This document shows, piece after piece, positions 34,334 to 60,532 of a stretch of DNA of 64,000 nt; within the stretch, counting starts at the first letter, position 1; every line of letters starts with the position of its first letter. A program made the position numbers and the translations under genes. The DNA comes from Patescibacteria group bacterium (lineage in GTDB: Bacteria > Patescibacteriota > Patescibacteriia > PEXW01): the NCBI GenBank assembly GCA_041671325.1, contig JBAZBR010000001.1, positions 153,771 through 217,770 on the forward strand, read 5' to 3'. The notes under the pieces are model-generated. The model ran no database searches. It had not been told where the DNA came from and saw only the letters and a program-made list of their open reading frames with translations.

Positions 34334-34444
34334 GAGGTGGCGGGAGAAATTACGCAACGGTTTTGTCCCGCACATTATAAATTCAATAGTTGTAAACGGG
34401 ATCTTCGAAATTGCATCAAAATTTGCCAGCGTAGCTCAGCTGGT

Positions 34445-34688
34445 ACCCCGCACAACTCACTACGTTCGTTTGCGGGGCAGGGAGCAACGGTTTTGTCTCC
34501 CTTCGGGAGATGTCCCGTAGGGACATAAACCTTGAAAAATAATTAGTTTTAAACCCGAGCCGCCCTAGCTCAGTGGTAGAGCAACTGTTTTGTAAACAGT
34601 AGGTCGTCAGTTCGACTCTGACGGGCGGCTCCAAACCCGGCGGGCAGAAACCGTAGGTCGTCCCGCGGCCGCGGGACCGCTGGCTCCA
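34445..34688 (+). pseudogene. degenerate tRNA-Thr(TGT)-like gene with hairpin insertions in the D-loop, anticodon loop and T-loop. The intact tRNA-Thr(TGT) is nested inside its anticodon-loop insertion.
   Basis: The 5' half gccagcgtagctcagctggta...gagcaacggttttgt and the 3' half aaaccgtaggtcgtc[ccgcggccgcgggac]cgctggctcca pair as acceptor and anticodon stems. Confidence 0.55.
34559..34633 (+). tRNA. tRNA-Thr (anticodon TGT)
   Basis: The cloverleaf was folded by hand, with anticodon loop ttTGTaa. A CCA end is encoded. Confidence 0.85.
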
Positions 34689-39456: not shown

Positions 39457-41442
39457 ATGTATGGATATATGACAAGCTTAAAAAAACTTTCATTCGCCAT
39501 TTGCGCCTTTTTAGTGATTTTTTTGCCAATCAAAGTTTTTGCGGCTGAACCAACGATAATTGACGTTGAAAGCGATTTCGCAGTCCGCGGCAGGGAATAT
39601 AAAATTGGAGAAGAATTCACTTTAGGTTTAAGACCCGACCTTTTTTCCTCTCCAGCCAGGATTACCATCACCCCGGAAGCTACTTTACCATTAGCCCTGC
39701 CTCCTAGGTATGAAGAGGCTGGCAAGCGTTATGAGTTAGTAATTGACGCGGCAGATGAAGGTGTGATGGCGGCAGATGCCATGTGGTTAAAAGTTTTAAG
39801 CGCTCCAAAAGCTGGGACAGAAACAGTTTTATTAGGCTTTAATTTTTCCAAACAAATTTGGGAATTTTTGGGACGTGGTGCGGACGCTCAGAATTTTATT
39901 AAAGGATCAACAAAACAACTGCATACTGTAATTGTAGCGGCAGCAGATTTATTTACCGTTCCAGGGAATTTTGGCAGTGATTTAATTGTTAATTCAAAAA
40001 CACAAGTTATAGATTTATCATCCCAATCAGTATTAAATTTTAAATTTGAAAATCTGCAATTTACTTTACCGAGTTCAACTATCAGCCAGAATGCGAGTTT
40101 AATAGTAATTCCAAATGTCGTTAGTCCTTTAATTTTACCGAGTCGATTTAAGGCCCGAACTTCATATTATCAGATAGCTCTACGTCAGCCCGGTGGGATA
40201 AAAATCCGGCCAACCGCTCCAATTACAATTTCGCCGACTTTAGCCAAGAACGGTTTTTTTGAACAAAAAGTTTTAATTTATAATGCCACCCATAAAACCT
40301 GGGAAACAGCCATTAAAAACCGTGTACCCAATCCAGAATCAATTTTTTTAATTGTTGATGATTTGGGCGAAGAGCAGGGGATAGCCAGTTGGTATTCAAG
40401 CAAAAAGTATCCTGATGGCGTAGCTCATAATCGTTATCCCATGGGTACTAAGCTAAAAGTCACAAATATCGAAAATAACAAATCAACCATCGTTAAAGTC
40501 GTCTCACGGGGACCGTACATTCGCGGTCGGGTTATTGATATGGTTTATACGGCATTTAAAAAGATAAAAGGCAAAAATGGCGGGGTAGCCACGGTCAAGG
40601 TTGCGGTTGTCGATTTGAAAGTTTTAGGCGAAACCATTGCAAAAACTGAAACACAATTAAATCCGGTTCCCACAGATGTCAATTCCAAGGAGCCTATTAA
40701 GCTTCCAATTTCGAGTACTGCTGGTGCAGTTTATGATGTTGATAATAAGGTCTTTGTGGCAATAAAAAATTCAGATGAAGCCCATCCAATCGCCAGCCTG
40801 TCCAAATTAATGACAGCTTTAGTTTATCTTGATCGCAAACCAACCTTTAGGAATAAAGTCACTTATCAAAAATCAGATTCAGCAATATGCGCTTGTCTGT
40901 ATGTGTCACCAGGCGAAACTTTAACAACCAAAGATTTGTGGAATGCCATGCTGATCGGTTCGGCAAATAACGCAGTTAAAGCGTTAGTCAGGTCAACGAA
41001 ATTATCAGAAGCAGAGTTTGTAAAACTAATGAACGAGAAGGCAAAGGCCTTGGGCCTTAACACCCTAACTTTTGCCGATCCAACCGGCTTAGATCCAGCA
41101 AACCAGGGCTCAGCTGCGGATATGGCAAAACTTGCCGCCATTGCTTTTTCTCGCCCAGAAATTGCCAATACGACCATTAAAAAAAGCTATACTTTTTCAA
41201 CCCTTAATACCAAAAGAAGCCATACCATAACCAACCGTAACCAGATTTTAACCAGTGGCTGGCAAGTAACCGGGACAAAAACTGGATATATAGAAGAATC
41301 AGGTTTTTGCTTAATCGGCCAGGTAAAAGGCAAGACCACAAACCGGAATTTAGTCGTGGTCACTTTGGGGGCCCAATCAAAAGCCCTGCATTATACTGAA
41401 ATGGAAAATTCATTTAGCATTGGTTTTGCAAATATTCAATGA
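39457..41442 (+). CDS. secreted cell-wall enzyme with an RlpA-like double-psi beta-barrel domain and a D-alanyl-D-alanine carboxypeptidase (S11, PBP5-like) domain
   Basis: It has a signal peptide, a DPBB-like region WYSSKKYPDGVAHNRYPMGTKLKVTN, an SxxK motif IASLSKLMTA and a serine-carboxypeptidase region. Confidence 0.65.
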   Translation: MYGYMTSLKKLSFAICAFLVIFLPIKVFAAEPTIIDVESDFAVRGREYKIGEEFTLGLRPDLFSSPARITITPEATLPLALPPRYEEAGKRYELVIDAADEGVMAADAMWLKVLSAPKAGTETVLLGFNFSKQIWEFLGRGADAQNFIKGSTKQLHTVIVAAADLFTVPGNFGSDLIVNSKTQVIDLSSQSVLNFKFENLQFTLPSSTISQNASLIVIPNVVSPLILPSRFKARTSYYQIALRQPGGIKIRPTAPITISPTLAKNGFFEQKVLIYNATHKTWETAIKNRVPNPESIFLIVDDLGEEQGIASWYSSKKYPDGVAHNRYPMGTKLKVTNIENNKSTIVKVVSRGPYIRGRVIDMVYTAFKKIKGKNGGVATVKVAVVDLKVLGETIAKTETQLNPVPTDVNSKEPIKLPISSTAGAVYDVDNKVFVAIKNSDEAHPIASLSKLMTALVYLDRKPTFRNKVTYQKSDSAICACLYVSPGETLTTKDLWNAMLIGSANNAVKALVRSTKLSEAEFVKLMNEKAKALGLNTLTFADPTGLDPANQGSAADMAKLAAIAFSRPEIANTTIKKSYTFSTLNTKRSHTITNRNQILTSGWQVTGTKTGYIEESGFCLIGQVKGKTTNRNLVVVTLGAQSKALHYTEMENSFSIGFANIQ

Positions 41443-42119
41443 TTACTTTTGAAAAGGTTTCCAAAATTTACCCTCATAATGTCATTGCCCTAAAAGACAT
41501 AAACCTTACCATTGAACCCGGCGAGTTAGTTTCTATTGTTGGCCAATCCGGCACGGGCAAGACCACTTTAGCAAAAATGATCATTGCCGAAGAGCATGCT
41601 TCAGAAGGCCGGGTAATTATCGGTGATTGGGATATTACGAATATAAACACTAAGGACGTACCGCTTTTACGCCGGCAGATTGGTGTGGTGTTCCAGGATT
41701 TTAAGCTTTTGCCCCAGAAGACCTTATTTGAAAATGTAGCTTTTGCCTTGGAGGTATCCGGGGCTTCCCATAGCAAAATTCAGCAAATCGTTCCGCAAGT
41801 TTTAAAAATAGTCGGTCTGCAACAAAAGCAAGACCGTTTTCCAAGGGAGGTTTCTGGTGGCGAGCAGCAGCGCGTGGTTATTGCCCGAGCCTTGGTCCAT
41901 CGCCCAAAAATTTTAGTTGCGGATGAACCAACCGGCAATCTTGACGCGATTAATGCCCATGAGATTGTTGAATTACTGCTCAAAATCAATAGTTTTGGAA
42001 CAACCGTTGTTTTGGTAACCCACAATCGGGAAATCGTAAACGGCCTTCGAAAAAGAGTTATAACCCTTGATCACGGCCACTTGGTCTCAGATCAAGCTAC
42101 AGGGAAATATCGATTATGA
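41439..42119 (+). CDS. ftsE: cell-division ABC transporter ATP-binding protein FtsE
   Basis: It has a Walker A motif GQSGTGKTT, an ABC signature LSGGEQQR and a Walker B motif. It is followed by ftsX. Confidence 0.85.
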   Translation: MITFEKVSKIYPHNVIALKDINLTIEPGELVSIVGQSGTGKTTLAKMIIAEEHASEGRVIIGDWDITNINTKDVPLLRRQIGVVFQDFKLLPQKTLFENVAFALEVSGASHSKIQQIVPQVLKIVGLQQKQDRFPREVSGGEQQRVVIARALVHRPKILVADEPTGNLDAINAHEIVELLLKINSFGTTVVLVTHNREIVNGLRKRVITLDHGHLVSDQATGKYRL

Positions 42120-43042
42120 TAGCCTTACAAACCAGTCGTGCCATCAAATTTGCCATTCAGAATTTCCGCAGGAACCTTTGGCTTTCCATTGTAACCATAA
42201 TTATCGTCGCGGTTGCGGTTTTTTCAATAAGTTTAGTATCGGCTTTAAATGTTTTGGGCGGGCGGGCTTTGCAGACCGTTGAAAAGAAAGTTGATGTCAC
42301 CTTGGAATTAAAAACTGATGTCACTGAAGATCAAGCGCTTGCTTTTAAGGGAAGATTGGAAGCCCTACCCAACATCCAAAGTATTGTGTATCAAAGCAAA
42401 ACCCAAGCTTTTGAGAATTTCAAGCAAATCCATAAAGACGATCCAAACATTCAAGCTTTATTGGCTGAACTTACGGAAAACCCCTTGCCTGCAAACATAA
42501 TCATTAAGGCAAAAAAAATCACCGACTTTGAGCAAATCATGAAGTTTGTGGACATTGATGAAAATATTAAATTAATTGCGGATAAAGACAGGGATTTTCA
42601 GGATAGCCAGACTGTCATAACAAAATTGACCCAAATTACCGATCGCATCAGGGAAATCGGGATTTTAGTTAGCGGGGTATTTGCCCTGCTGTCTTTAATT
42701 GTTTTATTCAATACTATCCGAATTGCCATTTACACCCATCGGGAAGAGATTGGGATAATGAGATTGGTTGGCGCTTCGAATGGTTTTATCCGTTCACCGT
42801 TTATAATTGAAAGCATTATTTATAGCATCATTGGCGCAGGCATTGCTTTGGCAGTAATTATCGTTCTTTGGCAAAGCGCGGCGCCGGCGGTATACAGGTT
42901 TTTCTTTGTTGGAACAGACGTGAGTGTCAGCAATATTTTAAAACAGGAATTTTGGGCAATTCTTGGCTGGGAGTTTATTGGCGCAATAATCTTGAGCACT
43001 TTAAGCGCTTGGATTGCCGCTCGGAGGTACTTGAAAGTCTGA
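42116..43042 (+). CDS. ftsX: cell-division permease FtsX
   Basis: It has 4 TM helices with a large first periplasmic loop, overlaps ftsE, and has the typical FtsX length. Confidence 0.8.
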   Translation: MIALQTSRAIKFAIQNFRRNLWLSIVTIIIVAVAVFSISLVSALNVLGGRALQTVEKKVDVTLELKTDVTEDQALAFKGRLEALPNIQSIVYQSKTQAFENFKQIHKDDPNIQALLAELTENPLPANIIIKAKKITDFEQIMKFVDIDENIKLIADKDRDFQDSQTVITKLTQITDRIREIGILVSGVFALLSLIVLFNTIRIAIYTHREEIGIMRLVGASNGFIRSPFIIESIIYSIIGAGIALAVIIVLWQSAAPAVYRFFFVGTDVSVSNILKQEFWAILGWEFIGAIILSTLSAWIAARRYLKV

Positions 43043-43069
43043 GAAAATTAATTTAATCTAGTGAATCAT

Positions 43070-43161
43070 TCCGGGATCGTCTTCCGCCAGAGGCGGATTA
43101 AGAAAATGGTAGGACAGCGGCCTTTTCCGCCCTAGGCGGACTCGCCTCCGGCGAGGAAGCC
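43070..43161 (+). pseudogene. degenerate tRNA-Gln 5' half with a hairpin insertion in the D-loop and two hairpins after the anticodon position. It lies upstream of a GIY-YIG gene.
   Basis: tccgggatcgtc[ttccgccagaggcggattaagaaaa]tggtaggacagcggcctttt[ccgccctaggcgg actcgcctccggcgagg]aagcc parallels intact tRNA-Gln positions 1-38. Confidence 0.55.
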
Positions 43162-43173
43162 AAGATATAATTT

Positions 43174-43371
43174 ATGTATTACGTTTACGTATTACTAAGT
43201 CATAAAGATAGAACAAGATATATTGGTTATTCTTCAAAAGAACCACATATTCGTCTCGCTGAACATAATAGTAGCAAAGGAATGTTTACACGTGGTCATC
43301 AACCCTGGATACTGACTTATTATGAAGAATTTGAACAGATAAAGACTGCTCGTGAGCGTGAGTTATTCTAA
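43174..43371 (+). CDS. GIY-YIG nuclease family protein (65 aa)
   Basis: It has an YVYVLLS...RTRYIGYS GIY-YIG core. Confidence 0.65.
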   Translation: MYYVYVLLSHKDRTRYIGYSSKEPHIRLAEHNSSKGMFTRGHQPWILTYYEEFEQIKTARERELF

Positions 43372-43425
43372 AAAAAGCGGCCAGGGCAGGAAATGGCTTG
43401 ACGACAAGTTTAAAAAATAATTTAT

Positions 43426-43499
43426 TCCGGGATCGTCTAATGGTAGGACAGCGGCCTTTGAAGCCGTTTATCTTGGTTCGAATCCAGGTCCCGGAGCCA
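43426..43499 (+). tRNA. tRNA-Gln (anticodon TTG)
   Basis: The cloverleaf was folded by hand, with acceptor tccggga/tcccgga, anticodon loop ctTTGaa and T-loop ttcgaat. Confidence 0.8.
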
Positions 43500-45080
43500 A
43501 TGTGCACGAAGCGACCGCTCTGGGTCGTTTTGTGCTGTAGTTGCAAAGGATTTCTTTGGTTCTAACATAGTCATTACTCGCTCTGCATTCTGATCAAGAT
43601 TTTTCACCGCAAACAGGAGAATGTCCAATGAAAGGTGGAGCTTTCCGTCCTTTAAAGAAAAGTTCGAACCTAGCGTTGTAAAAATCTCTTTTTTCACCTC
43701 AAGGCTTCCCGTAGCGAATACGCGCCGTGCTTTCTCTGCAAAGTTGATGCCCCGCTCGGCAATCCCCAGCCAATTTTCAATCCGCTTGTCCGTATCTTTC
43801 AAGAATTCCTGCATACGGTCTTTCTCTTTTAGTAAGGCAACCTTCCTGCCTCGAAACTCCACCTCATCAATCTCACTGTTTGCCCGCATGTCAATGAGGT
43901 TATCAAGCTTCTTCACGCACGATTCGTACTCTCGACGTTGGTTGCCGTAAACACGTTCCCGGTCCACTACTTCAAGCTTGTGCATTTCCCGGAGCCTCGC
44001 AATAGCCCAGTCTCGAAAATCCTCTTTGATTTCTAATTTACCAAGTTCAGTGGCAATCTGCTTTTCCACTTCACCTTCCTCAAGGGACTTTTGGGTGCAG
44101 TTCGGGTACTTCCGCTTCGTGCAGTGGTAGTAAATGTAGTGTTGGACGGTTCCATCAGCGAGGCGTTTCGTTTTCTCTTCAGCCGTGACCATTGCACCGC
44201 ACTCGCCACAGCGGATTGGGCCACGGTAAGGAAAGTCATGCGTCTTTGAGCGCTGGGGTGACGGGCGGCCAAGGAGTTCCTGAATGCGTTCAAACTCCTC
44301 TCGGTTAATCATTGCTTTGTGAATACCTTTATGCCAGTTGCCGCTACCCTTGGGATACTCGAACTCCCCATAGTAGAACGTATTTGTGAAAATGTTGTAG
44401 ATGGAGCTTCGACAAATTGGGGTGCCATAAGTGCCCCTAAGTTTCCACTCATCAGCCGCAATTTGCTGGATGCGTGGCGGAGAGTAGTTACCCGTAAGCA
44501 TGAGATCAAACATCTTTCGCACCAGGCCAAAGCGCTCCGGGTCGGGTGTAATAGTTTTCATGCCTTTGGTCATGTACATTTCGTTTTTATAACCCAGGGG
44601 TGCGGGAGCGGGCAGTACTCCCATTTGTGCTTTTTGAACCAAACCACGCTTCACATCCCTGCCTTTCTTGGCGCTCTCATACTGCGACTGCGAAAGCGCC
44701 AGTTGTAGCATCCAGATACCTTCAGGCGAGTTATTCTCAAAGTGGTAGGTGGCCAGCTTGAGGTCTTTGATGATGCCCTCACGTAACATGTAGGTAATAC
44801 TACTCGCGTCAACTTCATTGCGAGAAAGACGATCTGGATGCCACGCGAGTAAGCCCTGGCGTTCGCCCTTCCGAATACGTTCCAACATCTTGGTAAAAGC
44901 AGGGCGATTATACGGGTGAAAGGCACTGGCCTTGTCCTCAACGAATTCAATATCGAGGTCAGCAAAGACCTCAGTGAGCTTATTCTTTTGCGCAGGGATA
45001 GATAACGCCTGTCGCTCTTTTCCTTCAGAGGACTTACGTACGTAAGCGAAGTATTTAGTTGTTTTGCCGTGTGGATCCAT
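43437..45080 (-). CDS. large serine recombinase (resolvase N-terminal domain, recombinase domain and zinc ribbon). Its 3' end overlaps tRNA-Gln.
   Basis: It has an N-terminal YVRKSS...RQ.LSI catalytic Ser region, a YYHCTKRK...NCTQ zinc-ribbon region and a length of about 547 aa. It is a paralog of 58183..59859. Confidence 0.8.
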   Translation of the reverse strand: MDPHGKTTKYFAYVRKSSEGKERQALSIPAQKNKLTEVFADLDIEFVEDKASAFHPYNRPAFTKMLERIRKGERQGLLAWHPDRLSRNEVDASSITYMLREGIIKDLKLATYHFENNSPEGIWMLQLALSQSQYESAKKGRDVKRGLVQKAQMGVLPAPAPLGYKNEMYMTKGMKTITPDPERFGLVRKMFDLMLTGNYSPPRIQQIAADEWKLRGTYGTPICRSSIYNIFTNTFYYGEFEYPKGSGNWHKGIHKAMINREEFERIQELLGRPSPQRSKTHDFPYRGPIRCGECGAMVTAEEKTKRLADGTVQHYIYYHCTKRKYPNCTQKSLEEGEVEKQIATELGKLEIKEDFRDWAIARLREMHKLEVVDRERVYGNQRREYESCVKKLDNLIDMRANSEIDEVEFRGRKVALLKEKDRMQEFLKDTDKRIENWLGIAERGINFAEKARRVFATGSLEVKKEIFTTLGSNFSLKDGKLHLSLDILLFAVKNLDQNAERVMTMLEPKKSFATTAQNDPERSLRAHWLRDLDSNQDKRLQRPLSYH

Positions 45081-45121: not shown

Positions 45122-45751
45122 TTATATTTCAAGGTTAGTATAGCTTCTAGACGCCTGTTCGTAGAGCCTATACAGACGTTGTTGTTTTTTTGTGGGCTTT
45201 CCGGCGTAGTATGGGTTTTTTATTTTCTCCTGAAGTTCATACATTTTCTTGTGCATCATAAGAGTATTGAAGAGCGAAAAGTATTTACTACGTCGGTTTT
45301 CATTTCTGGAACTGTAGGTGAGATTGTAACAATGCCGGCAGGCGAAAAAAGTGCCAATTTGGTAGAGAACCCCCACCCGTCGACCGCAGTAATGACCATT
45401 GGAGAAGAATGGGCAACGAAACCAATATCGTTTACCCCCGTATCGGCATACCGTGGTAGTAAGAGGTACCCGACAGTCAAAAGCCTTCTCATCGCCATTG
45501 GGGTCGGTCTGTGCATAGGTTAAAAGTATATAAGCATTTTCACCAAGTGCCGAGACAGCGAGGTGGGTACTACTTTCCTCACCAGTGTAACCGTTGGTCC
45601 AGGTCATGGTCGCTGTTCTCCCGCTGGAAAGAAGGCCATTATGTTTGAGCACGTTAATAGATAGCTTCTTTAACCGATCTGCCTCGATTTTGCGTAAAAT
45701 CGTTATCCTATAATTACCGAAATCATTTGAGATTGGGGTCGGTTGCGGCAT
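45122..45751 (-). CDS. hypothetical Cys-rich (zinc-ribbon-like) protein
   Basis: It is an ORF with CRYGGKRYWFRCP...CRHC and lies between the recombinase and the primase. Confidence 0.45.
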   Translation of the reverse strand: MPQPTPISNDFGNYRITILRKIEADRLKKLSINVLKHNGLLSSGRTATMTWTNGYTGEESSTHLAVSALGENAYILLTYAQTDPNGDEKAFDCRVPLTTTVCRYGGKRYWFRCPFFSNGHYCGRRVGVLYQIGTFFACRHCYNLTYSSRNENRRSKYFSLFNTLMMHKKMYELQEKIKNPYYAGKPTKKQQRLYRLYEQASRSYTNLEI

Positions 45752-47940
45752 TAAAGTAATTTTTCAGTTACATTTACCCCACCCTTCGTCTCACTATTAT
45801 TGCCAGGAGGATTAGCCGTCAAATCGTTGGCGTCTTTACTACCATCAGAATTTTGAAAGTGGGAGGATGGGAAAATCAAGATTTTCCGTTTATCATCGGG
45901 ATCTTGCTCCTGGATGATAAGCCCGGCCGTCTCCAACATTGGCAGTATTTGCTGACGGAGCTGATGCGTGTCCAGCATCCGTCCGTAGACGGCGAAGTGT
46001 TTACTTAGCACCTCTTGGCGGGTAACTCCGACTGTACCTACGACTTTCTCTATTCCGTCTTGCCCTACATTTTTTTCCTCCCAAGCAGGAAAAATTATGT
46101 CTTTATAGAGGTCGTAAATGTAGGGTGGCAAATTGAGTTCCTGGCTTACAGAGATTTTATCCCAGAGCATGAAGGCCGCATCAATATCTTCATTATTAGC
46201 CATGATGGTTGAGTCTGTCTGTTCCCGCCACCAGATATTAAGGAGGGCAAACGCTTTAATAAGGGAGAGAAGTCGTTTGATGTCCCGTTGGTGACGCGGT
46301 TTGAGGAACTGATGATCGCCAAGGAAGCGTTTCTCTATCCTCTCCGGTGATACGATATTTATTTCCTTTGCATTCTCCAGCTTGATGGCACGGATGCGTT
46401 CTTTGAGCAAGATGCGTCCTGGATCCGCCTCTAGCCAGCTCGTGAAGCTTTCGCTGTTTGCTTCTTTGCGAATAACGGCGCTAATACCCTCGTGAATTTT
46501 TTCCTGATTAACCTCTGGCGAGAGTAGAAGAAAGCGGGTTGCTTCTTGCTCATCTATACGGAGTCCCGCGGTACAAAAGATGACTGACGGAAAACCTTTA
46601 ATAATTACAGTCTTGGTTCGGTTGCCACCTTTTTCATTTTTGTCGGTTATTTTGGATTGCATCTCTTTTTCGTCATGGGACAAAAGAGATCGTAATCGCT
46701 CTAGAAGATCGGCATGAGGTTGATCTAGAAAAATGATTATTTTCCTCGATAAATCCACTACGATTGTATTCGTATCCTTGTCAAACTCACCTTGCTCGTG
46801 AAAAAAAGCGTTGGGTGAGCAGTTGCCCAATTTCATAACATCTTGATTTGGAAACAAATTGGAGATTTCCAGTGGGATGTAGCTTTTCCCCGTTGAGGAT
46901 GGTGCGTTGTAACTGATGTTGAATTGGGCGTTTTCGGTGTATGCAGACAATTCACATAAGAACGTGGCGAGCTTGTTTTCTGCGTCGTGTTTAATGGTCA
47001 ACCCAAGCGTTGCAAGGAGCTGATTGACTGTGAGCGGCGTGAACTTGCTAGTATCAATCCGTTCGGGATACGGTTTCGCGTACTTGGAGAATAGGTCCTC
47101 AACCGTGCCATTCAGCTTAGTGAAGTAATCAGTTACATCCCCCCCATCGCCGACCTCCGGCGGAAGGGTGATGATGAATGTTTCTACTTTTCCGCCATCT
47201 TCAACCATTTTTGCGGTTCGCTCTGCGCCCTTTCGACCAGCATTATCGTTGTCGAAGCATACATAAACCTCCTTGAGGTTTTGGATACGTTCTGCCCATT
47301 CTTTATTGAACGTCATTGCCCCATGAGTCGAAGTAACAGCTAAAACACCTTTGGAGATGAGTAAGAGTCTGTCTAGTTCTCCCTCACACACCACCAGAGG
47401 GCTATCTGAAGTTTCTAGAGCTCCCCAGTCATACAGTTGGGCTTCCACCCCACTGGGGTAGGTCATTTTGTCATTCCCAAATGCTGGATCCTGTCGGAGC
47501 TTAAAAAAGACGTAATTCCCGTAGGTATCCTTGATGGGTATGGTAATCCACTGCTTACGGTAGAATTGCCCGTAGCCGAGCTTGTAGGCGTCAATTACAG
47601 CGTCTGTAAGCCCCCGCTCGTGTAGGTATTCACGAATATGAATTGGGAGTGCCTGGTGGTACTTCTCAACCTTGTCTGTAACAGAGTTGATCGTCCGGCG
47701 AGGGCGTGACTCCTCGTCGCCCAGATGTTTGCGGAGGGTTTGGAGATTACCTTGTGCGCCACACTTCTTGCAGTCGTACTGCCCGGTTTCGGTATTGAAG
47801 TACAAGTGCGCCTCTCCGTTCCTGCTATCCTTGTCGCACTCGTTTAATAGGCATTTCGTGATGAGTTCGTTGCCACTCTCGCGGAATGCGATACCCTTCT
47901 GGGCTAGGTACTCGCGGATGGTAATTGTCTGTAGGGTCAT
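45751..47940 (-). CDS. phage/plasmid-type DNA primase-helicase (zinc finger, Toprim and P-loop region)
   Basis: It has an N-terminal CxxC...CxxC zinc finger, a Toprim-like EGELDRLLL...TSTHG region and a Walker-A-like PSSTGKSY motif. It is 729 aa. Confidence 0.6.
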   Translation of the reverse strand: MTLQTITIREYLAQKGIAFRESGNELITKCLLNECDKDSRNGEAHLYFNTETGQYDCKKCGAQGNLQTLRKHLGDEESRPRRTINSVTDKVEKYHQALPIHIREYLHERGLTDAVIDAYKLGYGQFYRKQWITIPIKDTYGNYVFFKLRQDPAFGNDKMTYPSGVEAQLYDWGALETSDSPLVVCEGELDRLLLISKGVLAVTSTHGAMTFNKEWAERIQNLKEVYVCFDNDNAGRKGAERTAKMVEDGGKVETFIITLPPEVGDGGDVTDYFTKLNGTVEDLFSKYAKPYPERIDTSKFTPLTVNQLLATLGLTIKHDAENKLATFLCELSAYTENAQFNISYNAPSSTGKSYIPLEISNLFPNQDVMKLGNCSPNAFFHEQGEFDKDTNTIVVDLSRKIIIFLDQPHADLLERLRSLLSHDEKEMQSKITDKNEKGGNRTKTVIIKGFPSVIFCTAGLRIDEQEATRFLLLSPEVNQEKIHEGISAVIRKEANSESFTSWLEADPGRILLKERIRAIKLENAKEINIVSPERIEKRFLGDHQFLKPRHQRDIKRLLSLIKAFALLNIWWREQTDSTIMANNEDIDAAFMLWDKISVSQELNLPPYIYDLYKDIIFPAWEEKNVGQDGIEKVVGTVGVTRQEVLSKHFAVYGRMLDTHQLRQQILPMLETAGLIIQEQDPDDKRKILIFPSSHFQNSDGSKDANDLTANPPGNNSETKGGVNVTEKLL

Positions 47941-48125
47941 AGTGGGTAATGTTTAGTGAGTGAGGGGTTGGGGAAAGTTCTTTGCGCTTTCTTTCAGGAC
48001 AACCTCCATTAGGCGGATGAGTCGTAGTCCCTTCTCCAGTGCTTCCTCCTTGGTGAGGTCCACACCAAAGTGCTTGCGGTAGAGCATTTGGAACTCGGTA
48101 AGGTGGTCGTCCGTGAGCTGCATGG

Positions 48126-48419
48126 CTATTCGGAGTAGAGCCGATTTTTTAGCATTTTGAGGGTGTCGAAGTACTGTAATGCAGAGATTTTGAGTTCACC
48201 CGCCCAATATTTATTTATAGCCTCGTCGATTCCTTCCTTACGTTTGAAGACAAAAAGTGCCTTCCGTGGGTTCGTTTTATCGAGCGTTACAAGTTCAAAA
48301 CCTGAACAGAGGAGCGCGGAACAAGCGCCCATGTCAAAGGACCTTAGAAGATGCTCTTGGTTGTCAAGCGGAATGTGGCGGATCTCTTCCGGGGGTATGC
48401 TCTTCTGTCCTTGAGTCAT
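48126..48419 (-). CDS. hypothetical protein
   Basis: It is an ORF in the mobile region. Confidence 0.35.
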   Translation of the reverse strand: MTQGQKSIPPEEIRHIPLDNQEHLLRSFDMGACSALLCSGFELVTLDKTNPRKALFVFKRKEGIDEAINKYWAGELKISALQYFDTLKMLKNRLYSE

Positions 48420-48518
48420 AAATATTTAGGTAATAAAAAAATAGCGTAATCTACTTTAAAGTTACGCGTTAGCTGTTTTGTTGTCGTTGTAGGCTTATTG
48501 GGTCATATCATTTCTGAC

Positions 48519-49337
48519 TTAATCTGTATGTTTCCACTCCGGTAAACCTTTAAGAAATGAATTGATGATTTCTTCGTTAATATTTAGACTTCGTAAGTTC
48601 TGCGTATCTATTTTTGTACGAAATTCTACACCGGCGCTTGATATACCCGGAAAGAAGAGTTTTTTAAGTTCCTTAGTAAAACCTAAATCATCAATGATTT
48701 GGTGAAGCGACTTTTTGAGAGTTGTTCTCATTCCCGACTCGATATCCTTTTTCGTATGCTTTTGATCAGGATGAGCAAAAACATACTCACAAAATTTATC
48801 ATTTTCGCTGTCAAAGTTAGGCCTACTAAGAATGCGGTCGTTAATAATCAGCTCACGGGTTTTGGGACGAAAAATAGAGTAAATGGAGCGGGGATCAATA
48901 CTATTATGTGAATAGACAATAGATTGTTTCTTCTTACTTCCAGCTTTCAACTTTTGAAAAGAAGGTTCGACATCTTCATATTCGTCTGCGACCCATTTTA
49001 AGTAGTTTTCAAAAGCAACATTATCAATAATTTGTATAGAAAAATGATCTAAGGGAGCGACATGATCGGTTAGGGTAATCCACCTGTACCGAATACCACC
49101 ACCCTCAAGTGAAGCTTTTTTTAGAATGCTTTCAACTTCGGATTGATTTTTTACAAGTCCTCGGCCGGCTTCGAAGAAGTCAGTCCATTTGATATTAAAA
49201 TTAACCTGATCACGTGGCGCTATCTCTTTTCGTTGCCGTATATAAAGTAATATCCTCTTTATCTTCAGAAGGCCGTCTCTCTTGAGTTGTAATTGATTCT
49301 TATCTTGTTGATCCATAGTAATAATATACTTGCACAA
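48519..49337 (-). CDS. hypothetical protein (low GC, about 35%)
   Basis: It is an ORF with no recognised domain. A nested perfect hairpin lies upstream at 49426-49497. Confidence 0.4.
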   Translation of the reverse strand: MCKYIITMDQQDKNQLQLKRDGLLKIKRILLYIRQRKEIAPRDQVNFNIKWTDFFEAGRGLVKNQSEVESILKKASLEGGGIRYRWITLTDHVAPLDHFSIQIIDNVAFENYLKWVADEYEDVEPSFQKLKAGSKKKQSIVYSHNSIDPRSIYSIFRPKTRELIINDRILSRPNFDSENDKFCEYVFAHPDQKHTKKDIESGMRTTLKKSLHQIIDDLGFTKELKKLFFPGISSAGVEFRTKIDTQNLRSLNINEEIINSFLKGLPEWKHTD

Positions 49338-49585
49338 TGTCCTGCTTTTCAGTATGATTTTATCAGCTTCAAGACTTTTTTCAAGAGCAAATGCGTTAGC
49401 AGAATAGACAATTTTCGAGCCTAAACCTCACTTCGTGAGGCATGGTACCAAACCCCTTAGTAGATACTGAACCCCGTGTTCAGCGACTCTACTAAGGGTC
49501 ACATTCCGAAAGGGATGTGGGTGGCCGAAAGGTCGCTAGCTGGCGCGGGGTTTTGTGTTTTTACTCTCTTATCAAATCATAAACT

Positions 49586-49885
49586 ATGGAAAGTTCTGCA
49601 GAAAAAATTATCAAAGTGCAACAAAAAAGATACTACCATTGTGAAAAGTGTGGTTCCTATACAAGAGCGCCAATTGAAGAGCCAAACTTCTTTTTCCTGT
49701 TGTTGGGAGGTTTTCTGATAGCACTTATTCGTCAATGGGTAAAATCTAAGCCGCCTAAAGTATGCGTGAAATGCGGTAGTAGTATTACATCAAAAGAAAT
49801 ATTTTTAAGAACAGAGATGGGTAAAAGCCGAAAGGAAATTGCATTTTATTTACCCTCAGGTGATAGAGTTCAATCGCAAACTTAA
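49586..49885 (+). CDS. hypothetical zinc-ribbon membrane protein
   Basis: It has CEKCG...CVKCG flanking one TM helix. Confidence 0.35.
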   Translation: MESSAEKIIKVQQKRYYHCEKCGSYTRAPIEEPNFFFLLLGGFLIALIRQWVKSKPPKVCVKCGSSITSKEIFLRTEMGKSRKEIAFYLPSGDRVQSQT

Positions 49886-50437
49886 TATATGAAAATTGTT
49901 AAAGCTAAACAGTCTTTTATTATTCTTGCCGTACTGTGGTTTATGATGTTGATCCCGATTATTGTGGACGCTCATTTGAGTCGTGTTGGGGCACTGATTT
50001 TCTGGCTGCCCTTTTGCTTTATGATTTTCTACTTGTATCGTATTTTAACCCCATGACCTCACGTCTCGAAAAAGTACTCATTGTAAGTATGGGTTTTAAT
50101 TGTCATCCAATGTCCCGCCGCTGATGGTGGTGTAGCGGATGACGTGGTCAATCTTATGCAACAGTCAAATTCAACCCATATAGTTATTGGTATCAGTGCT
50201 TTCATTGCCAGTTTTTTCTTCTATTTCATATTGCTTCCACGAAGTATCACGGTGAGTTATGCTTATGAAGATACCTTAAGCTTGAGTACTCTGTGGCTAG
50301 TTCTTGGTACTTTATGTTTTTGGATCGCTTTTTTGTGTGTGTATGGTTATTTCAAAAAATAATAGAACATTATTATCTCGGCATGTCGATATAAAGAGAC
50401 TTTGTTCTACTGGATATAATGCTTTATCGAAATAGCA

Positions 50438-51283
50438 ATGTATAAAATTTTTATCTTTGAGGACGATCATTTTCTACGTGAGATGTATGTTGGGATGCTT
50501 AAGACAGAAGGTTTTGAGGTTTTTGAATTTGAATATCCGCCAATTAACGTGGTGGATATTATCGCTCAAGCAAAACCCGACGTGATAATATTTGGTATAC
50601 TGCCGAACCTTTCGGGTCCTGAAACTATTAAGCAGTTGCAAGTTGACCCAAGAACCAAGAATATCCCTTGTCTTGACCTTGGTAACATCAATAAACCTAT
50701 TGATAAAAAATCTCATAAATGGAGCGGCGCGGATGACTATAAAATGATGGCTGACATGATGCCTTCTGCTGTTATCAACCGCGCGAAGGCGTTGATCGGT
50801 TTGCCTCCAACTAAATATAAATCAGTATACAAACAGAAACCTTTAGAAACATTACAACCACCAGCTACGCCAACTAAAGTTGCAAATCCACAATACAACT
50901 TTAAAATAATGATGTTTGAAGATGATCTGTTTATGCAGGGAATGTATGAACTAAAATACCAAGCGCATGGTATTACAGTAGTTGCATTTGAATACCCACC
51001 AGTAAATGTTGCTGATGTAGTTGCAAAAGAAAAACCAGATGTAATATCTATGGGAGTAATTATGCCACACATGGATGGTTTTGAGGCAGCGGCTATTCTT
51101 CATAAAGATCCACGAACAAAAGCCATTCCACTTTTCTTTTTTACAAACATGGGGAGGAAAAAAGACATTGAAAAAGGCGTGTCTTTAGGAGCGGTAGATT
51201 ACATAATTAAAACTAATTGTCCTCCCCAGGCAGTTCTTGAAAGGGTAGTAACGATTGTACAAAAATCAAATGCTAACCATTAA
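50438..51283 (+). CDS. tandem receiver-like (REC-REC) protein, a paralog of the REC protein at 19962. The first domain lacks the phospho-acceptor Asp.
   Basis: Its second half (DVISMGVIMPHMDGF...FFFTNMGRKKDIEKGVSLGAVDYIIKT) is clearly similar to 19962..20330. Its first half has FGILPNLSG in place of the acceptor Asp. Confidence 0.55.
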   Translation: MYKIFIFEDDHFLREMYVGMLKTEGFEVFEFEYPPINVVDIIAQAKPDVIIFGILPNLSGPETIKQLQVDPRTKNIPCLDLGNINKPIDKKSHKWSGADDYKMMADMMPSAVINRAKALIGLPPTKYKSVYKQKPLETLQPPATPTKVANPQYNFKIMMFEDDLFMQGMYELKYQAHGITVVAFEYPPVNVADVVAKEKPDVISMGVIMPHMDGFEAAAILHKDPRTKAIPLFFFTNMGRKKDIEKGVSLGAVDYIIKTNCPPQAVLERVVTIVQKSNANH

Positions 51284-55499: not shown

Positions 55500-56432
55500 T
55501 TGATCATGCGAAAGCCCCTAGAAAAACTTAGAAAAATTGGCCTAAAGCATGCTCTTAGCACGCGTCTTTACGGAATCGTTGGTGTTTTTATTGTATTATC
55601 CTTCGCCATCCCCCAGTTATCACTAGCGTCAACAATTACCGCTCGTTCTTTGGCACTCAAGCTTACCGTACACGCAGAGGATGGAGCCGGGTATGTTCGT
55701 TCTGCATTTAAGCTATGGATTGATGCTGACCATGACGGTTGTGATACGCGACAGGAGGTATTGATTGTTGAATCAAAGGTTAAACCTAAGCTTGGAGCCA
55801 AATGTAAAATTATCTCGGGCAAGTGGATATCCTGGTATGACAACAAAACCTGGACGAAACCTGCTGACGTTGCTATTGATCATGTTGTCCCTCTTAAGGA
55901 AGCCTGGGATTCTGGGGCAAAATTTTGGACAGCCGCAACCCGCGAGCGTTATGCAAACGATTTAAGTTTCAGTTGGGGACTTGATGCCATAACTAGCAAA
56001 GTTAACTCCAGTAAGGGTGACAAAGACCCCGCTCAGTGGCTCCCTCCACTCACTTCCGCACGGTGTACCTATGCTATCCATTGGGTTGCAATTAAATACC
56101 GATGGAAGCTTACCGTTGACTCTGCTGAGCAAAAAAAGTTACTATCCATCCTCTCTGGTACCTGTGGCTCACGTACACTTACAGTACCAACTGTAATTGC
56201 TACAAGTACCACGATAAATCAAAATACCAATGCAAACACTAATACAATCAACACCAGTGCGCCTATTATTGCCCCGGTCCAGACGCCCGCACCAACACCA
56301 GTAGTTGTTACTCCAGTACCTAACACGAGTTCCTGTTGCAAAGTTTGTACAAGCGGGCAAGCTTGTGGCGATAGCTGTATTTCTTGGTCTTACACATGCC
56401 ATAAGGGCGTAGGCTGCGCCTGCCAAGGATAA
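55500..56432 (+). CDS. secreted HNH-like nuclease-fold protein (GmrSD C-terminal / DUF1524-like) with a Cys-rich C-terminus
   Basis: It has a signal/TM anchor, IDHVVPLKEAW...N...SKGDKDP (a His-Me finger-like motif) and a C-terminal CCKVCTSGQACGDSC. Confidence 0.45.
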   Translation: MIMRKPLEKLRKIGLKHALSTRLYGIVGVFIVLSFAIPQLSLASTITARSLALKLTVHAEDGAGYVRSAFKLWIDADHDGCDTRQEVLIVESKVKPKLGAKCKIISGKWISWYDNKTWTKPADVAIDHVVPLKEAWDSGAKFWTAATRERYANDLSFSWGLDAITSKVNSSKGDKDPAQWLPPLTSARCTYAIHWVAIKYRWKLTVDSAEQKKLLSILSGTCGSRTLTVPTVIATSTTINQNTNANTNTINTSAPIIAPVQTPAPTPVVVTPVPNTSSCCKVCTSGQACGDSCISWSYTCHKGVGCACQG

Positions 56433-56441
56433 ATCATTCCA

Positions 56442-56990
56442 ATGTCAATGAAATGGAACAAAGCTAGTACCCTAGTGGTTTTACTTTTTCTTGTAACAGT
56501 AACTCTAAATTTTTATTATGGTTCTGTTTTATATTCAAAAGTATTAGGGAAGCAGTACCAATTCACTATTGGCAAGGAATGTTTTAAATCACGTCCTGAT
56601 TGCGAAGCAAAGTATTTTCAAGGTTATTTAGATAAAATTGGTTCTCTTACCAATGAGAGCAGAACCTATTTTTCAAACATCATTATTCAAAACAACCAAA
56701 AAGGATATACAGGAAATTGTCCTTGTCCTTACGATAGTGATAGTGCGGGGAATAGTTGTGGAGGGAGATCTAGTTACTCAAAAAATGGACGAATATCATT
56801 TTGCTATGACTCCGATGTACCAGCTGAACAGATTGTGGACTTAAAGAGCTCGATGATTGCTCAGGAAAGAAAAAATCTTGATGATGCTATACAAAAAGAT
56901 ATTAACATTTATCACGAACAGTACACATTGCTTATAGTAGTAATTATATATAGTGTGATATTTTTCTACTTTAAAAATAAAAAATATTGA
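56442..56990 (+). CDS. hypothetical membrane protein with a Cys-rich central region
   Basis: It is an ORF with N- and C-terminal TM helices. Confidence 0.35.
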   Translation: MSMKWNKASTLVVLLFLVTVTLNFYYGSVLYSKVLGKQYQFTIGKECFKSRPDCEAKYFQGYLDKIGSLTNESRTYFSNIIIQNNQKGYTGNCPCPYDSDSAGNSCGGRSSYSKNGRISFCYDSDVPAEQIVDLKSSMIAQERKNLDDAIQKDINIYHEQYTLLIVVIIYSVIFFYFKNKKY

Positions 56991-57179
56991 AGGAATCTCC
57001 CTAGACACTGACACTTTAACGTTAAATAGAATTTAGCCATGATGTTGCTTTAAAAATTTTTTATTTTTTTCTAACAAACGAGGCGTATACTAGAGAAAAA
57101 TTTGGAGACGGCTCTTTATTTCAGGTGGGTAGGGGGGGGCGGTAATAAAACTTCACAAAATGAGTAGTATTGAGTATAC

Positions 57180-57716
57180 TTGAGTTGCTTTATGAATATC
57201 GCAATAACGGGCAATAGAAGAATATCCGAGACAATTCTTTACTTGCTCAAACGAGCTGATGAGAGAGGGGTACACAACCTCTCGAAATTTCAAATTATGA
57301 AACTTCTATACCTAATTGAGGTAGAGTATAGGAGATATCTTGGGAAAGGATTCTTTGAGACGCCAACATTTACAAGATTTGATCGAGGACCAATTCTTAA
57401 TGAAGCATATCCAATTATTGATACATTAATTTCAAGTGGTAAGGTCAAACTAACAATTCAAAGAAACCCAGGGTATGGACACGATAGGCATAGCCATTCT
57501 TTAAACAATCCAGATATTAAGGTGAGCCTTAGAGATGGAGAAAAAATATTCTTGAATAGTATTATTGATAGCTACATTGAATTAACACAAGCAAAATTGA
57601 GTAAAATTGCATACTCAACCGAACCAATGAAGAAAGTTCTGGCTAAAGAAAAAGGGGGAGAAATTTCTAAAGAAGCATTAGACATGGGACTAGTAAAAAA
57701 ACAAAGCTTTGGCTAA
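57180..57716 (+). CDS. Panacea-domain (DUF4065 / SocA-like) protein, a candidate antitoxin-associated protein
   Basis: It has the Panacea-like core KLLYLIEVEYRRYLGKGFFETPTFTRFDRGPI. Confidence 0.5.
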   Translation: MSCFMNIAITGNRRISETILYLLKRADERGVHNLSKFQIMKLLYLIEVEYRRYLGKGFFETPTFTRFDRGPILNEAYPIIDTLISSGKVKLTIQRNPGYGHDRHSHSLNNPDIKVSLRDGEKIFLNSIIDSYIELTQAKLSKIAYSTEPMKKVLAKEKGGEISKEALDMGLVKKQSFG

Positions 57717-58134
57717 TCCACCGGGATCAATACTTCATTTTACTAAGTACGTTTTCCTGGATAATAATGAGGCCAGGAACCATTTCGCTTTGCTTCTTAT
57801 CCCAGAGGACAAGACTAGTTTTACTAGAAGCGTTTGGTGTTGCGTCATTTCGTCAAACATTGATTACACCACTGGAATGAAAAAGTATTGTGTAAGGTTG
57901 GGAGAACGCTACCCATGTTTTTTACACCGTACTTACGTACACACTCACAAAATTGATTTACAGGAGAAAATTAATCTTCATAGAAACAACCCACGTGGGC
58001 TATTACGTGGAAGTGATCTCCGTCTTGTATTTCGAAAACTTCAAAGTTATATCTCTTCAAAAACATCATTAGAACCTGAAATCAAAGCCACCATATTCAG
58101 AGAGTGGCAGTTGCATTATGGGACCCTGCTTTGA
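57709..58134 (+). CDS. hypothetical protein (a possible partner of the Panacea-domain protein)
   Basis: It is an ORF overlapping the previous gene by 8 nt. Confidence 0.35.
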   Translation: MANPPGSILHFTKYVFLDNNEARNHFALLLIPEDKTSFTRSVWCCVISSNIDYTTGMKKYCVRLGERYPCFLHRTYVHTHKIDLQEKINLHRNNPRGLLRGSDLRLVFRKLQSYISSKTSLEPEIKATIFREWQLHYGTLL

Positions 58135-58182
58135 AGATGAGTTTTGTCCTGATTAAATAGTGAGTACTGGGGTGGGGTAAAT

Positions 58183-59859: not shown

Positions 59860-59889
59860 AGGGGCAACCGAGAAAACGTTCGAACCCGT

Positions 59890-60123
59890 TTAATCGATAT
59901 CAGCATCTGATTTCATCAAGGTTTTAAAAAGATTGGTGAGTCTATTTGCTATCTCCCAGGCTTCCTTATCAGAGAGCTTATGACCAAATTCATCTTCATA
60001 GATGGCCTTAAGTTCTTCAATCGATTTCTGCGCTAATGGCATAAGCCCTAACCATAACAATCCCGTTAAGTCTGAACAGAGAGGAAATATTGCCTCTACG
60101 AGCAAACCAACCCAAAATGTCAA
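59890..60123 (-). CDS. hypothetical small protein
   Basis: It is an ORF. Confidence 0.3.
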   Translation of the reverse strand: MTFWVGLLVEAIFPLCSDLTGLLWLGLMPLAQKSIEELKAIYEDEFGHKLSDKEAWEIANRLTNLFKTLMKSDADID

Positions 60124-60184
60124 TTCCTTGGGTCATCCTTGTTTTTATCCACAGCGGGTTGCCTAGAGTGGCAATTGCAGGCAT

Positions 60185-60532
60185 TTGCATCCCTGCCCTA
60201 ATCTTGCTGTTACTGCTAGTTTAGTAATCAGGAGGGTATATTTTATGTCAAAAATCGCTCTTTCCCCGCGATTCCCAAATGATATCCGGCGGATTCGAAG
60301 ATCACGGCATCTAAGATTGAAGGATGTGGCCATTCTTATGGGTCAAAAATCAGTGGCACATATCTCGCACTGGGAAAAAGGTCGGAAGATTCCGTCTTTA
60401 ACAAATCTTTTCAAACTCGCGGCAATTCTGGGTATTCAGCCGGAATTCCTATTCCTCGAACTATACAGGCAGATTCGAAAAGATGTGCATGAACTCAACC
60501 AGAACCATAATATTTTCGAAAGGTATGACTGA
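60185..60532 (+). CDS. XRE-family helix-turn-helix transcriptional regulator
   Basis: It has the HTH region LRLKDVAILMGQKSVAHISHWEKGRKIPSLTNLFKLAAILGI. The likely start is the ATG at about 60245. Confidence 0.6.
   Translation: MHPCPNLAVTASLVIRRVYFMSKIALSPRFPNDIRRIRRSRHLRLKDVAILMGQKSVAHISHWEKGRKIPSLTNLFKLAAILGIQPEFLFLELYRQIRKDVHELNQNHNIFERYD

Follow-up and report, generated by a model that had tools for sequence, protein, structure and literature searches.

In the 64,000-nucleotide (nt) stretch of Patescibacteria DNA analysed here (hereafter the window; contig JBAZBR010000001.1, positions 153,771 to 217,770), the genes ftsE and ftsX are followed by a hairpin-interrupted copy of the 5' part of a glutamine transfer RNA (tRNA) gene, a small GIY-YIG nuclease gene, an intact tRNA-Gln and, on the opposite strand, a large serine recombinase (LSR) gene whose end reads into the tRNA (Table 1). 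This arrangement is probably the result of two unrelated mobile elements having used one tRNA-Gln, namely a GIY-YIG cassette at 43070-43499 and an LSR-primase element from 43500 to ~51 kilobases (kb). The intact tRNA, which a first-pass annotation of the sequence had already placed here, is called by both ARAGORN and Rfam; it is the functional copy, which the cassette has either kept or supplied.

The 5' copy corresponds exactly and collinearly to positions 1-40 of tRNA-Gln in blocks of 13, 21 and 6 nt. The first-pass annotation had recognised both the copy and the three GC hairpins within it, and formal alignment bore this out (13/13, 21/21 and GAAGCC), whereas the span of positions 1-38 that it gave has to be extended to 1-40 in linear numbering. 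Since a 21-mer repeat is not attainable by chance in 64 kb, the copy is real, and all three hairpins are present in both the minimum-energy and the centroid DNA folds. The double hairpin at 43126-43155 splits the anticodon between standard positions 35 and 36 and, as the junction element, marks out the cassette family described below; the 22-nt D-loop insert at 43083-43104, which is present at the identical site in loci L004, L088 and L122, is probably the scar of an older insertion. A strict double-hairpin pattern occurs twice in the window, both times inside a tRNA fragment, and in none of 20 shuffles of the window. A promoter and terminator scan gave no enrichment, and the hairpins lack a T-run. 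The ~15-nt AT-rich stretch of the spacer after the FtsX stop is repeated at 43411-43425, immediately 5' of the intact tRNA-Gln (repeat families D4/D5), so the duplication takes in some upstream flank. The 5' fragment begins 27 nt past the FtsX stop and, as in the cassette-less loci L091 and L093 an intact tRNA is found 28-31 nt past that stop, the hairpin-broken fragment occupies the site of tRNA-Gln in these relatives.

The nuclease gene had been described as wedged between tRNA halves; it lies instead between the 5' fragment and a complete tRNA. Its product matches Pfam family PF01541 over residues 1-70 (E=7e-12, 45.9 bits against a gathering cut-off of 22.6), and the conserved catalytic residues (Y3, Y5, Y16, G18, R27, H31 and E63), invariant in alignment A1, are all kept in the open reading frame (ORF) of the window. 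The GIY-YIG ORF of 65 amino acids (aa) reported at first was thus correctly assigned to its family, but it is a truncated, frameshifted gene. The frame stops after codon 65; following TTC-TAA, the +1 frame reads KKSGQGRKWLDDKFKK and then a stop, up to 43420, providing 16 C-terminal codons (43370-43420). Homologues are 79-81 aa long and end in ...RE.FLKSGQGRKWLD..., the ending that the window encodes in the +1 frame, and a hidden Markov model finds the gene as two frame pieces. The gene sequence is identical in two independent SRA assemblies, so the 1-nt frameshift is real and not an assembly error, and one inserted T would be its simplest cause. Programmed frameshifting or transcriptional slippage at the A7 run was considered and rejected, because the in-frame TAA (43369-43371) stands at the start of the run, where slippage cannot bypass it. 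The cassette of the window appears to be a decaying copy, in which the frameshift would have cost the nuclease its integrity and left it a passenger. The reconstructed protein of 81 aa has a sole PDB match, 1YWL (UPF0213 protein EF2693; E=1.8e-5). Pfam and NCBIfam scans found no second domain, and NCBIfam gives the protein no name; it stops ~10 residues past the catalytic domain, without the C-terminal DNA-binding domain of classical homing endonucleases (I-TevI, Seg) or any other of the DNA-binding extensions for which a check had been suggested.

This cassette is one of many. Scanning one genome per species with an alignment of the closest homologues yielded 80 loci spanning Patescibacteria, Bacteroidota, Ignavibacteria, Bacillota and others, with encoded GIY-YIG proteins of ~80 aa. 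A co-oriented tRNA lies within 150 nt in 45 of the 80 loci (29 downstream, 14 upstream and 2 overlapping) and an antisense tRNA in none; tRNA density would lead one to expect ~1-2%, as a rough estimate and not a computed control. The opposite flank of the nuclease gene holds pieces of the same tRNA in most tRNA-linked loci, and the parts come in two arrangements. The first, that of the window, runs from tRNA positions 1 to x through the hairpins and the next 5-15 nt of the tRNA to the nuclease gene, a short spacer and the intact tRNA. Its mirror image runs from the intact tRNA through the nuclease gene to a short piece ending at x, the hairpins, and the tRNA from x+1 to its 3' end. The 5-15-nt continuation of the tRNA after the hairpins was found in every comparable locus, and the hairpins lie 7-36 nt from the nuclease start in most loci.

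The double hairpin also recurs when inserts are delimited solely by where the tRNA match stops and resumes. Among 22 inserts bounded in this way, 14 are double hairpins of exactly 30 nt and 6, from Bacteroidota, are perfect palindromes of 20-21 nt. Across 12 boundary-defined double hairpins, 144/144 cells are paired (standard pairs) and 9 of the 12 pairs show compensatory changes; none of 500 shuffles matches this pairing, and slid controls come nowhere close. Independent insertion sites, with positions classified by hand, fall in the D-, anticodon- or T-loop or at loop/stem junctions in ~18 of 20 cases, and GA stands directly 3' of the break at many sites.

Individual loci illustrate how far the theme varies. 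At L003, a tRNA-Cys is followed by the nuclease gene and then by a tRNA-Cys 3' fragment split in its T-loop by two hairpins, one of which (CTCGCC-TCT-GGCGAG) is almost identical to a hairpin of the window. At L004, the gene after the nuclease is a tRNA-Gln that carries the D-loop insert of the window and is split at the same anticodon position; the splitting segment contains a second, complete tRNA-Gln, whose acceptor stem differs from that of the outer one, so the cassette at least sometimes brings in an intact tRNA. A complete tRNA-Gln inside a split outer tRNA-Gln was observed at L004 255-545, L096 3935-4330, L107 and L117, and in these tRNA-within-tRNA loci the 5' and 3' parts of the outer gene still pair together. 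Several loci leave no room for a promoter of the nuclease gene, which must therefore be read from the tRNA promoter; where such room is absent, it is probably co-transcribed with the tRNA fragment.

A nuclease-less family member lies elsewhere in the window at tRNA-Thr. This remnant consists of 34425-34445, a 36-nt D-loop hairpin insert, 34482-34495, a double hairpin at 34496-34525 and then TAAACC; its double hairpin is likewise placed between anticodon positions 35 and 36 and is followed by 6 nt of tRNA. More degenerate pieces were seen at 34353-34372 (GCAACGGTTTTG, then TCCCGC). The only clear double hairpin at a non-tRNA site is intergenic (L137 2219-2248) and is flanked by AAGGATT repeats.

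Relatives of the cassette also occupy ribosomal RNA (rRNA) genes. Among the 33 non-tRNA-linked loci with room to judge, 12 sit inside 16S or 23S rRNA genes, and ~70% of the sampled family lies at loops, either within structural RNA genes or next to them. The isolate Lagierella massiliensis (L081, 1463-1773) has a 310-nt insert in place of a 4-nt loop at a 23S helix tip; this insert contains an 84-aa GIY-YIG ORF with a Shine-Dalgarno sequence and is bounded by a 14-nt inverted repeat. This insert, in a cultured isolate, looks like an RNase III-type intervening sequence. GIY-YIG ORF inserts were also recorded in three rRNA operons of one Bacillota metagenome-assembled genome (L039, L040 and L056). 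In a neighbour-joining tree, the proteins fall together according to target, with Ser, Cys/Ile, Arg, Met and Gln clades besides a 23S and a 16S clade, and a few target switches are seen, between tRNAs that are alike in local sequence around x.

Comparison of the tRNA-Gln locus with related genomes, proposed at the outset as a check, revealed both empty and occupied sites. Orthologous loci were recovered via FtsX, with 41-80% FtsX identity to the window among the relatives compared. The site is empty in L091 and L093 (FtsX 64-65% identical), where tRNA-Gln directly follows ftsX, and occupied in the window, L088/L089, L122, L090, L096 and L140. L088/L089 (FtsX 80%) carry the same cassette, with D-loop insert, CTCGCC hairpin, GAAGCC and spacer all matching; their nuclease ORF is full-length, and their fragment is already diverging from the intact tRNA. 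The same cassette is present in L122 (FtsX 41%), with the hairpin-bearing 5' fragment upstream and, downstream, two tandem units each made up of CCTTT, a double hairpin, the tRNA from GAAGCC to its 3' end and 23 nt of flank. In L090, L096 and L140, tRNA-Gln has been invaded independently, at D-loop sites, by other GIY-YIG subfamilies; in L096 a nuclease gene and a complete tRNA-Gln lie inside the D-loop of the outer tRNA-Gln, bounded by a perfect 11-bp inverted repeat, and L107 and L117 have a collapsed hairpin with the same stem at the same site. Extra tRNA-Gln fragments were detected at 23 of 44 FtsX-linked tRNA-Gln loci and a nuclease gene at only 5. Nuclease identities to the window (L004 69%, L122 ~57% by manual count, L088 54%) do not track host relatedness, and together with the empty and occupied sites and the excess of fragments they make up the pattern expected from repeated gain, decay and loss of a selfish element that leaves hairpins behind as scars.

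The second element begins where the tRNA ends. The recombinase had been thought to read ~60 nt into tRNA-Gln, and it does so over 63 nt: its last 21 codons are tRNA antisense, the stop TAG is the antisense of CTA in the D-loop, and the Q codon CAA in this tail is the antisense of the anticodon. The protein has Resolvase, Recombinase and zinc-ribbon domains (PF00239, PF07508 and PF13408, all above cut-offs), with sub-threshold similarity to XisF and Ccr in NCBIfam. Its homologues number ~2,000, mostly from the Candidate Phyla Radiation (CPR), and many end in ...NPxMLRDLDSNQDxxLQRxxSYH and a stop, which is the antisense translation of tRNA-Gln(UUG). One homologue (P0060) overlaps a tRNA-Asn by 13 nt, and the closest (P0012, in L168) extends into a tRNA interrupted by a group I intron. 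The anticodon loop of this last tRNA (L168 11590-11957, minus strand) is split by ~300 nt of intron (Rfam Intron_gpI, 58 bits), and ARAGORN makes no call there. Tail-less variants diverge exactly at the tRNA 3' end, and homology between the window and L088 ends at 43500; these divergence points place the crossover at the tip of the acceptor stem, ~43495-43500, and not deep in the tRNA. L088 was rejected as an LSR-empty site, as its downstream sequence also encodes an LSR C-terminus. From these sequences, the antisense-tRNA tail would seem to be a by-product of integration, and a CPR lineage of LSRs seems habitually to integrate at tRNA-gene 3' ends (Gln, Asn and the intron-bearing tRNA).

The order of genes in L168 is that of the window (response regulator, zinc ribbon, unknown ORF, DUF5659, primase, LSR, tRNA), and synteny between the window and L093 resumes at a 907-aa ORF, which places the element between 43500 and somewhere around 49.9-52.6 kb. 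The first-pass annotation had proposed an element integrated at tRNA-Gln with its recombinase gene beside the attachment (att) site, and the antisense tails of the homologues and the related element with the same gene order agree with this. The att core that it sought within 43437-43500 is not inside 43437-43490 and would lie at the 3' edge of that interval, at the crossover. The 5' half copy, which had been tied to the recombinase element, is part of the GIY-YIG cassette, and that cassette is found again at many tRNAs where there is no LSR.

Table 1. Features of the tRNA-Gln locus, its flanks and the tRNA-Thr remnant, in window coordinates
Feature	Position	Strand	Remarks
ftsE and ftsX	41439-43042		upstream of the tRNA-Gln locus
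Spacer after the FtsX stop	43042-43069	+	contains a ~15-nt AT-rich stretch, AAAATTAATTTAAT
Copy of tRNA-Gln positions 1-13 (resident 5' remnant)	43070-43082	+	13/13 identity
22-nt insert at the D-stem/D-loop junction	43083-43104	+	hairpin TCCGCC-AGA-GGCGGA (6-bp stem, 3-nt loop) and TTAAGAA
Copy of tRNA-Gln positions 14-34	43105-43125	+	21/21 identity
30-nt double hairpin	43126-43155	.	two units of 6-bp stem and 3-nt loop: TCCGCC-CTA-GGCGGA and CTCGCC-TCC-GGCGAG
Copy of tRNA-Gln positions 35-40 (GAAGCC), short inner arm	43156-43161	+	
AT-rich spacer AAGATATAATTT ahead of the nuclease start codon	43162-43173	+	conserved in L088, L122 and L010
Minimal Slx1-like/UPF0213 GIY-YIG gene	43174-43420	+	split by an apparent 1-nt insertion; open ORF 43174-43371 (65 aa)
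tRNA-Gln(UUG), intact	43426-43499	+	ARAGORN and Rfam, 62.8 bits
LSR gene, 547 aa	43437-45080	-	63-nt overlap with tRNA-Gln
Remainder of the LSR element	45122-51283	-	right boundary between ~49.9 and 52.6 kb
First ORF past the LSR gene, 209 aa	in 45122-51283	-	
Toprim primase-helicase-like gene	45751-47940	-	the only gene named by PHROGs
DUF5659 gene	48126-48419	-	
272-aa ORF	between the DUF5659 gene and the zinc-ribbon ORF		
Zinc-ribbon ORF	49586-49885	+	
Response-regulator gene	50438-51283	+	
tRNA-Thr(UGU)-like 5' fragment, nuclease-less family member	34425-34531	+	27 nt upstream of an intact tRNA-Thr(TGT)

Some further features of this region were noted. A GC-rich inverted repeat (GCACGAAGCGACC...GGGTCGTTTTGTGC, 43503-43534) lies just past the 3' end of the tRNA, in the part of the LSR gene that codes for the C-terminus; there the LSR protein, unchanged in length, no longer follows the ...IYARNPVM motif found in its homologues. 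Between the divergent ORFs of the LSR element, a 119-nt non-coding stretch (49440-49558) is 84% identical to L168 5937-6050, far more conserved than the flanking genes; it is a candidate origin, regulatory region or small RNA. A possible second island at 55500-60532 encodes a second LSR on the minus strand (58183-59859) besides GmrSD-like endonuclease-domain, SocA/Panacea antitoxin-domain and helix-turn-helix proteins; the tail of this LSR (...LLDDVRNAALSGKS) is similar to the non-tRNA tails seen in P0028 and P0098. Two Logan contigs from independent assemblies of the same strain (L001 and L002) end within tRNA-Gln, at 43455 and 43453; these ends are probably an assembly-graph branch caused by tRNA sequence common to other community members, and they may reflect strain-level variation at tRNA-Gln. 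As evidence of a population breakpoint they were set aside as uninformative, because contigs commonly break in tRNA sequence shared between species.

The anatomy of the cassette, its recurrence, the covariation of its hairpins and its preference for loops are all observed, as are the tRNA that it carries and the sites found empty or occupied; from these observations we infer a mode of movement. We propose, tentatively and with slightly less than even confidence, that minimal Slx1-like GIY-YIG proteins are largely the nucleases of an unrecognised class of selfish cassettes residing in tRNA loops, or in simpler form in rRNA genes, of Patescibacteria, Bacteroidota and other phyla, which would find their targets via DNA structure or short loop motifs, restore an intact tRNA and use the double hairpin as a junction or recombination element. 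The homing-type cassette suggested at first sight of the locus is right in kind. The cassette itself probably consists of the 30-nt double hairpin at the insertion point, a GIY-YIG gene coding for the catalytic domain only and a full or partial replacement tRNA. The host would keep a working tRNA through the replacement copy, and the invaded original would persist as the hairpin-interrupted fragment. The nuclease would probably break an uninterrupted tRNA (or rRNA) gene at an exposed loop or loop-stem junction; because the protein is a bare catalytic domain with no room for a sequence-reading domain, we propose that it finds its targets by DNA structure or by short conserved motifs in the loops, and not by long sequence. 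Repair of the break from a cassette-bearing copy would copy the cassette in, as in homing, and the hairpin would come to interrupt the target in the spare fragment.

In one full form, the product would read A, then hairpins, nuclease gene, tRNA and hairpins, then C, with A and C being remnants of the resident tRNA, an order to which L122 comes close. Recombination between the repeated parts of the tRNA could produce the one-sided forms of the window and of most other loci, and the same process could produce the nuclease-less tandem units of L105, L069 and L068. Repeated rounds would leave hairpin scars such as the D-loop insert of the window, and the hairpin may also act as a recombination or recognition site or stabilise the end of the messenger RNA. 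The LSR element would have been inserted at the extreme 3' end of the tRNA, and the integrated recombinase ORF would then run into the antisense of the tRNA.

Several points weigh against this interpretation. No cleavage activity or target is known for any member of the minimal GIY-YIG group. The intact tRNA of the cassette would also be a target, which would call for repair from a sister copy or some other immunity. Simple homing explains neither the 5-15-nt inner arm nor the duplication of host flank in L122, L069 and the window, and the model offers no explanation of the means by which a cassette gains the sequence of a new tRNA. The clustering of the proteins by target is partly confounded with host taxonomy, and no presence/absence polymorphism was found among near-identical genomes, the available relatives having 64-80% FtsX identity. 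For the LSR element, only one of the two junctions could be placed: attL lies at ~43495-43500, and no attR, 3' remnant of tRNA-Gln or repeat was found to the right with whole-window 11-mers and local alignment, the post-tRNA terminator motif of relatives or the comparison with L168. Target-site-duplication models with staggered cuts were tried and rejected as a misfit to the order of the parts, and no single mechanism covers both the inner arm and the flank duplication.

An unlikely alternative, which nevertheless accounts for part of the evidence, is that the double hairpin is itself mobile, as a tiny palindromic unit resembling a miniature inverted-repeat transposable element (MITE) or a repetitive extragenic palindrome (REP), moved in trans by a structure-specific GIY-YIG nuclease. 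It would insert into the hairpin loops of tRNA DNA, the tRNA duplications would be secondary rescue events and the nuclease gene would not home. This would be consistent with the double hairpins that occur without a nuclease gene, in the tandem units of L105, L122, L069 and L068, in the tRNA-Thr remnant of the window and at the non-tRNA site of L137, as well as with the nesting of one double hairpin within another in L010 and L105. Hairpin copies are, moreover, identical within a genome and differ between genomes by compensatory changes. However, there are just two double hairpins in 64 kb, both in tRNA fragments, and they are not dispersed in the manner of REPs or MITEs. The many dispersed copies and the Y1 or DDE transposase that characterise REP, REP-associated tyrosine transposase (RAYT) and MITE systems were not found, no such transposase being noticed among the ORFs scanned. 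The short distance between hairpin and nuclease start in most loci also counts against independent movement of the hairpin and, as a lone insertion would kill a single-copy tRNA, the regular presence of an intact copy argues for a coupled event.

It is very improbable that the cassette is RNA-guided, in the manner of OMEGA/TnpB systems. The transcript of the tRNA 5' part, the double hairpin and the following 5-15 nt of tRNA would here be the guide, with the hairpins as a protein scaffold and the tRNA-derived arms base-pairing to the tRNA gene to the left and right of the cut. Such a guide would give a purpose to the short inner arm, otherwise unexplained, since in every locus exact target sequence borders the hairpins at either end, and it would suit a nuclease that has no DNA-binding domain and whose gene, having no room for its own promoter in some loci, is likely to be co-transcribed with the fragment. 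We know of no GIY-YIG nuclease that uses a guide RNA, however, and 80 aa would be very small for a guide-RNA nuclease. The rRNA-embedded relatives have plain inverted repeats and not the arrangement of hairpin and arms, and the guide, like the proposed homing nuclease, would also target the intact tRNA of the cassette.

We give scarcely any more credence, and if anything a little less, to the tRNA fragments being ordinary integrase att scars of islands, with hairpins that are terminators and a GIY-YIG gene that is incidental cargo. tRNA genes are classic integration sites, an LSR element lies at this same tRNA-Gln, and some tRNA-Gln 3' fragments of relatives could stem from integrase events; against this, the fragment of the window copies the 5' part of the tRNA and lies on the flank opposite to the recombinase, the unit measures only 356 nt and has no integrase, the same architecture with a nuclease is found at 45 tRNA loci in several phyla without recombinases, and the hairpins stand inside tRNA sequence at loop positions without a T-run. 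A degenerate group I intron with a homing endonuclease gene in tRNA-Gln, which the first-pass annotation had rejected, can be dismissed almost entirely: although tRNAs of these bacteria can contain such introns, as next to the LSR homologue of L168, no Intron_gpI match was obtained at E<=1 in 42800-43800 with the Rfam method that detects the L168 intron, the intact tRNA is uninterrupted, no 3' exon is present to partner the fragment and a catalytic core would have no room.

If the proposal of selfish cassettes is true, a widespread family of minimal nucleases, for which no biological role has been given since it was first catalogued, would gain one as selfish elements on RNA genes. The cassettes would represent a third way to inhabit an essential gene, besides introns and inteins, by duplicating or replacing the gene instead of splicing out of its product, and they would explain many partial tRNA genes, which make the annotation of tRNAs confusing in bacteria with small genomes. 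A nuclease of ~80 aa with a defined hairpin partner makes the targeting rule directly testable, and the window would provide a case of one tRNA gene contested by two different mobile elements simultaneously.

A literature search, whose incomplete coverage makes it no proof of novelty, found no bacterial GIY-YIG cassettes that have tRNA fragments or double hairpins, and the cassette would seem to be a variation on the homing-element theme, in tRNA genes, that has not been described. GIY-YIG ORFs have been published from non-intron insertions of CPR rRNA genes, in a report that is silent on tRNA genes, hairpins and duplications (Tsurumaki et al. 2024, PMC11270868). Those insertions and the cassette share the same minimal protein family, with the 16S and 23S clades falling within the same tree, and a position as non-intron inserts at stem-loop tips or bases, bounded in L081 by an inverted repeat. 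The host gene in the window is, in contrast, a tRNA, which cannot tolerate an insertion, so that the cassette is accompanied by a duplicated or replacement tRNA; it also has the 30-nt double hairpin at its junction.

SegB of phage T4 is a much larger protein with a C-terminal DNA-binding domain (Seg/I-TevI family). This free-standing GIY-YIG nuclease of a tRNA cluster gains preferential inheritance by cutting the tRNA region of SegB-less genomes (PMC2330249). Both cases have a nuclease gene beside tRNA genes and spread by homing, as proposed for the cassette, whereas the T4 case has no tRNA fragment, hairpin junction or target duplication. With the stand-alone Slx1-like GIY-YIG proteins (UPF0213; 1YWL), the cassette protein shares its minimal architecture and its sequence family. 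Such proteins were taken to be vertically inherited and of unknown role, with the question of molecular parasites raised for some (Dunin-Horkawicz et al. 2006, PMC1564403); unlike in that view, many members surveyed here lie in or beside tRNA and rRNA genes with hallmarks of mobile elements.

Among elements that use tRNA genes, integrative elements restore the tRNA with their own copy of the displaced segment, and a tRNA-Thr arrangement of fragment, element and tRNA is known from the archaeon Caldiarchaeum (PMC3293823). Here too, a tRNA fragment lies on one side and an intact, partly element-supplied tRNA on the other; those elements, however, are kilobases long and have integrases, whereas the cassette has ~350 nt, a nuclease and a palindromic hairpin at loops. 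In fungal mitochondria, free-standing mobile endonuclease ORFs that duplicate the displaced end of their host gene are said to have been described by Paquin and colleagues in 1994 and 2000, and Allomyces mitochondrial DNA reportedly contains 'double-hairpin elements'. The likeness would lie in the duplication of a target-gene terminus and in short, GC-rich, apparently mobile double hairpins, and those elements are reportedly organellar, with protein-coding hosts and larger endonucleases. The LSR element, finally, has the three domains of other such recombinases (phage integrases, SCCmec Ccr, XisF) and a recombinase gene that likewise adjoins the att site, whereas the ORF of the lineage in the window differs from theirs in gaining a tRNA-antisense tail in the integrated state.

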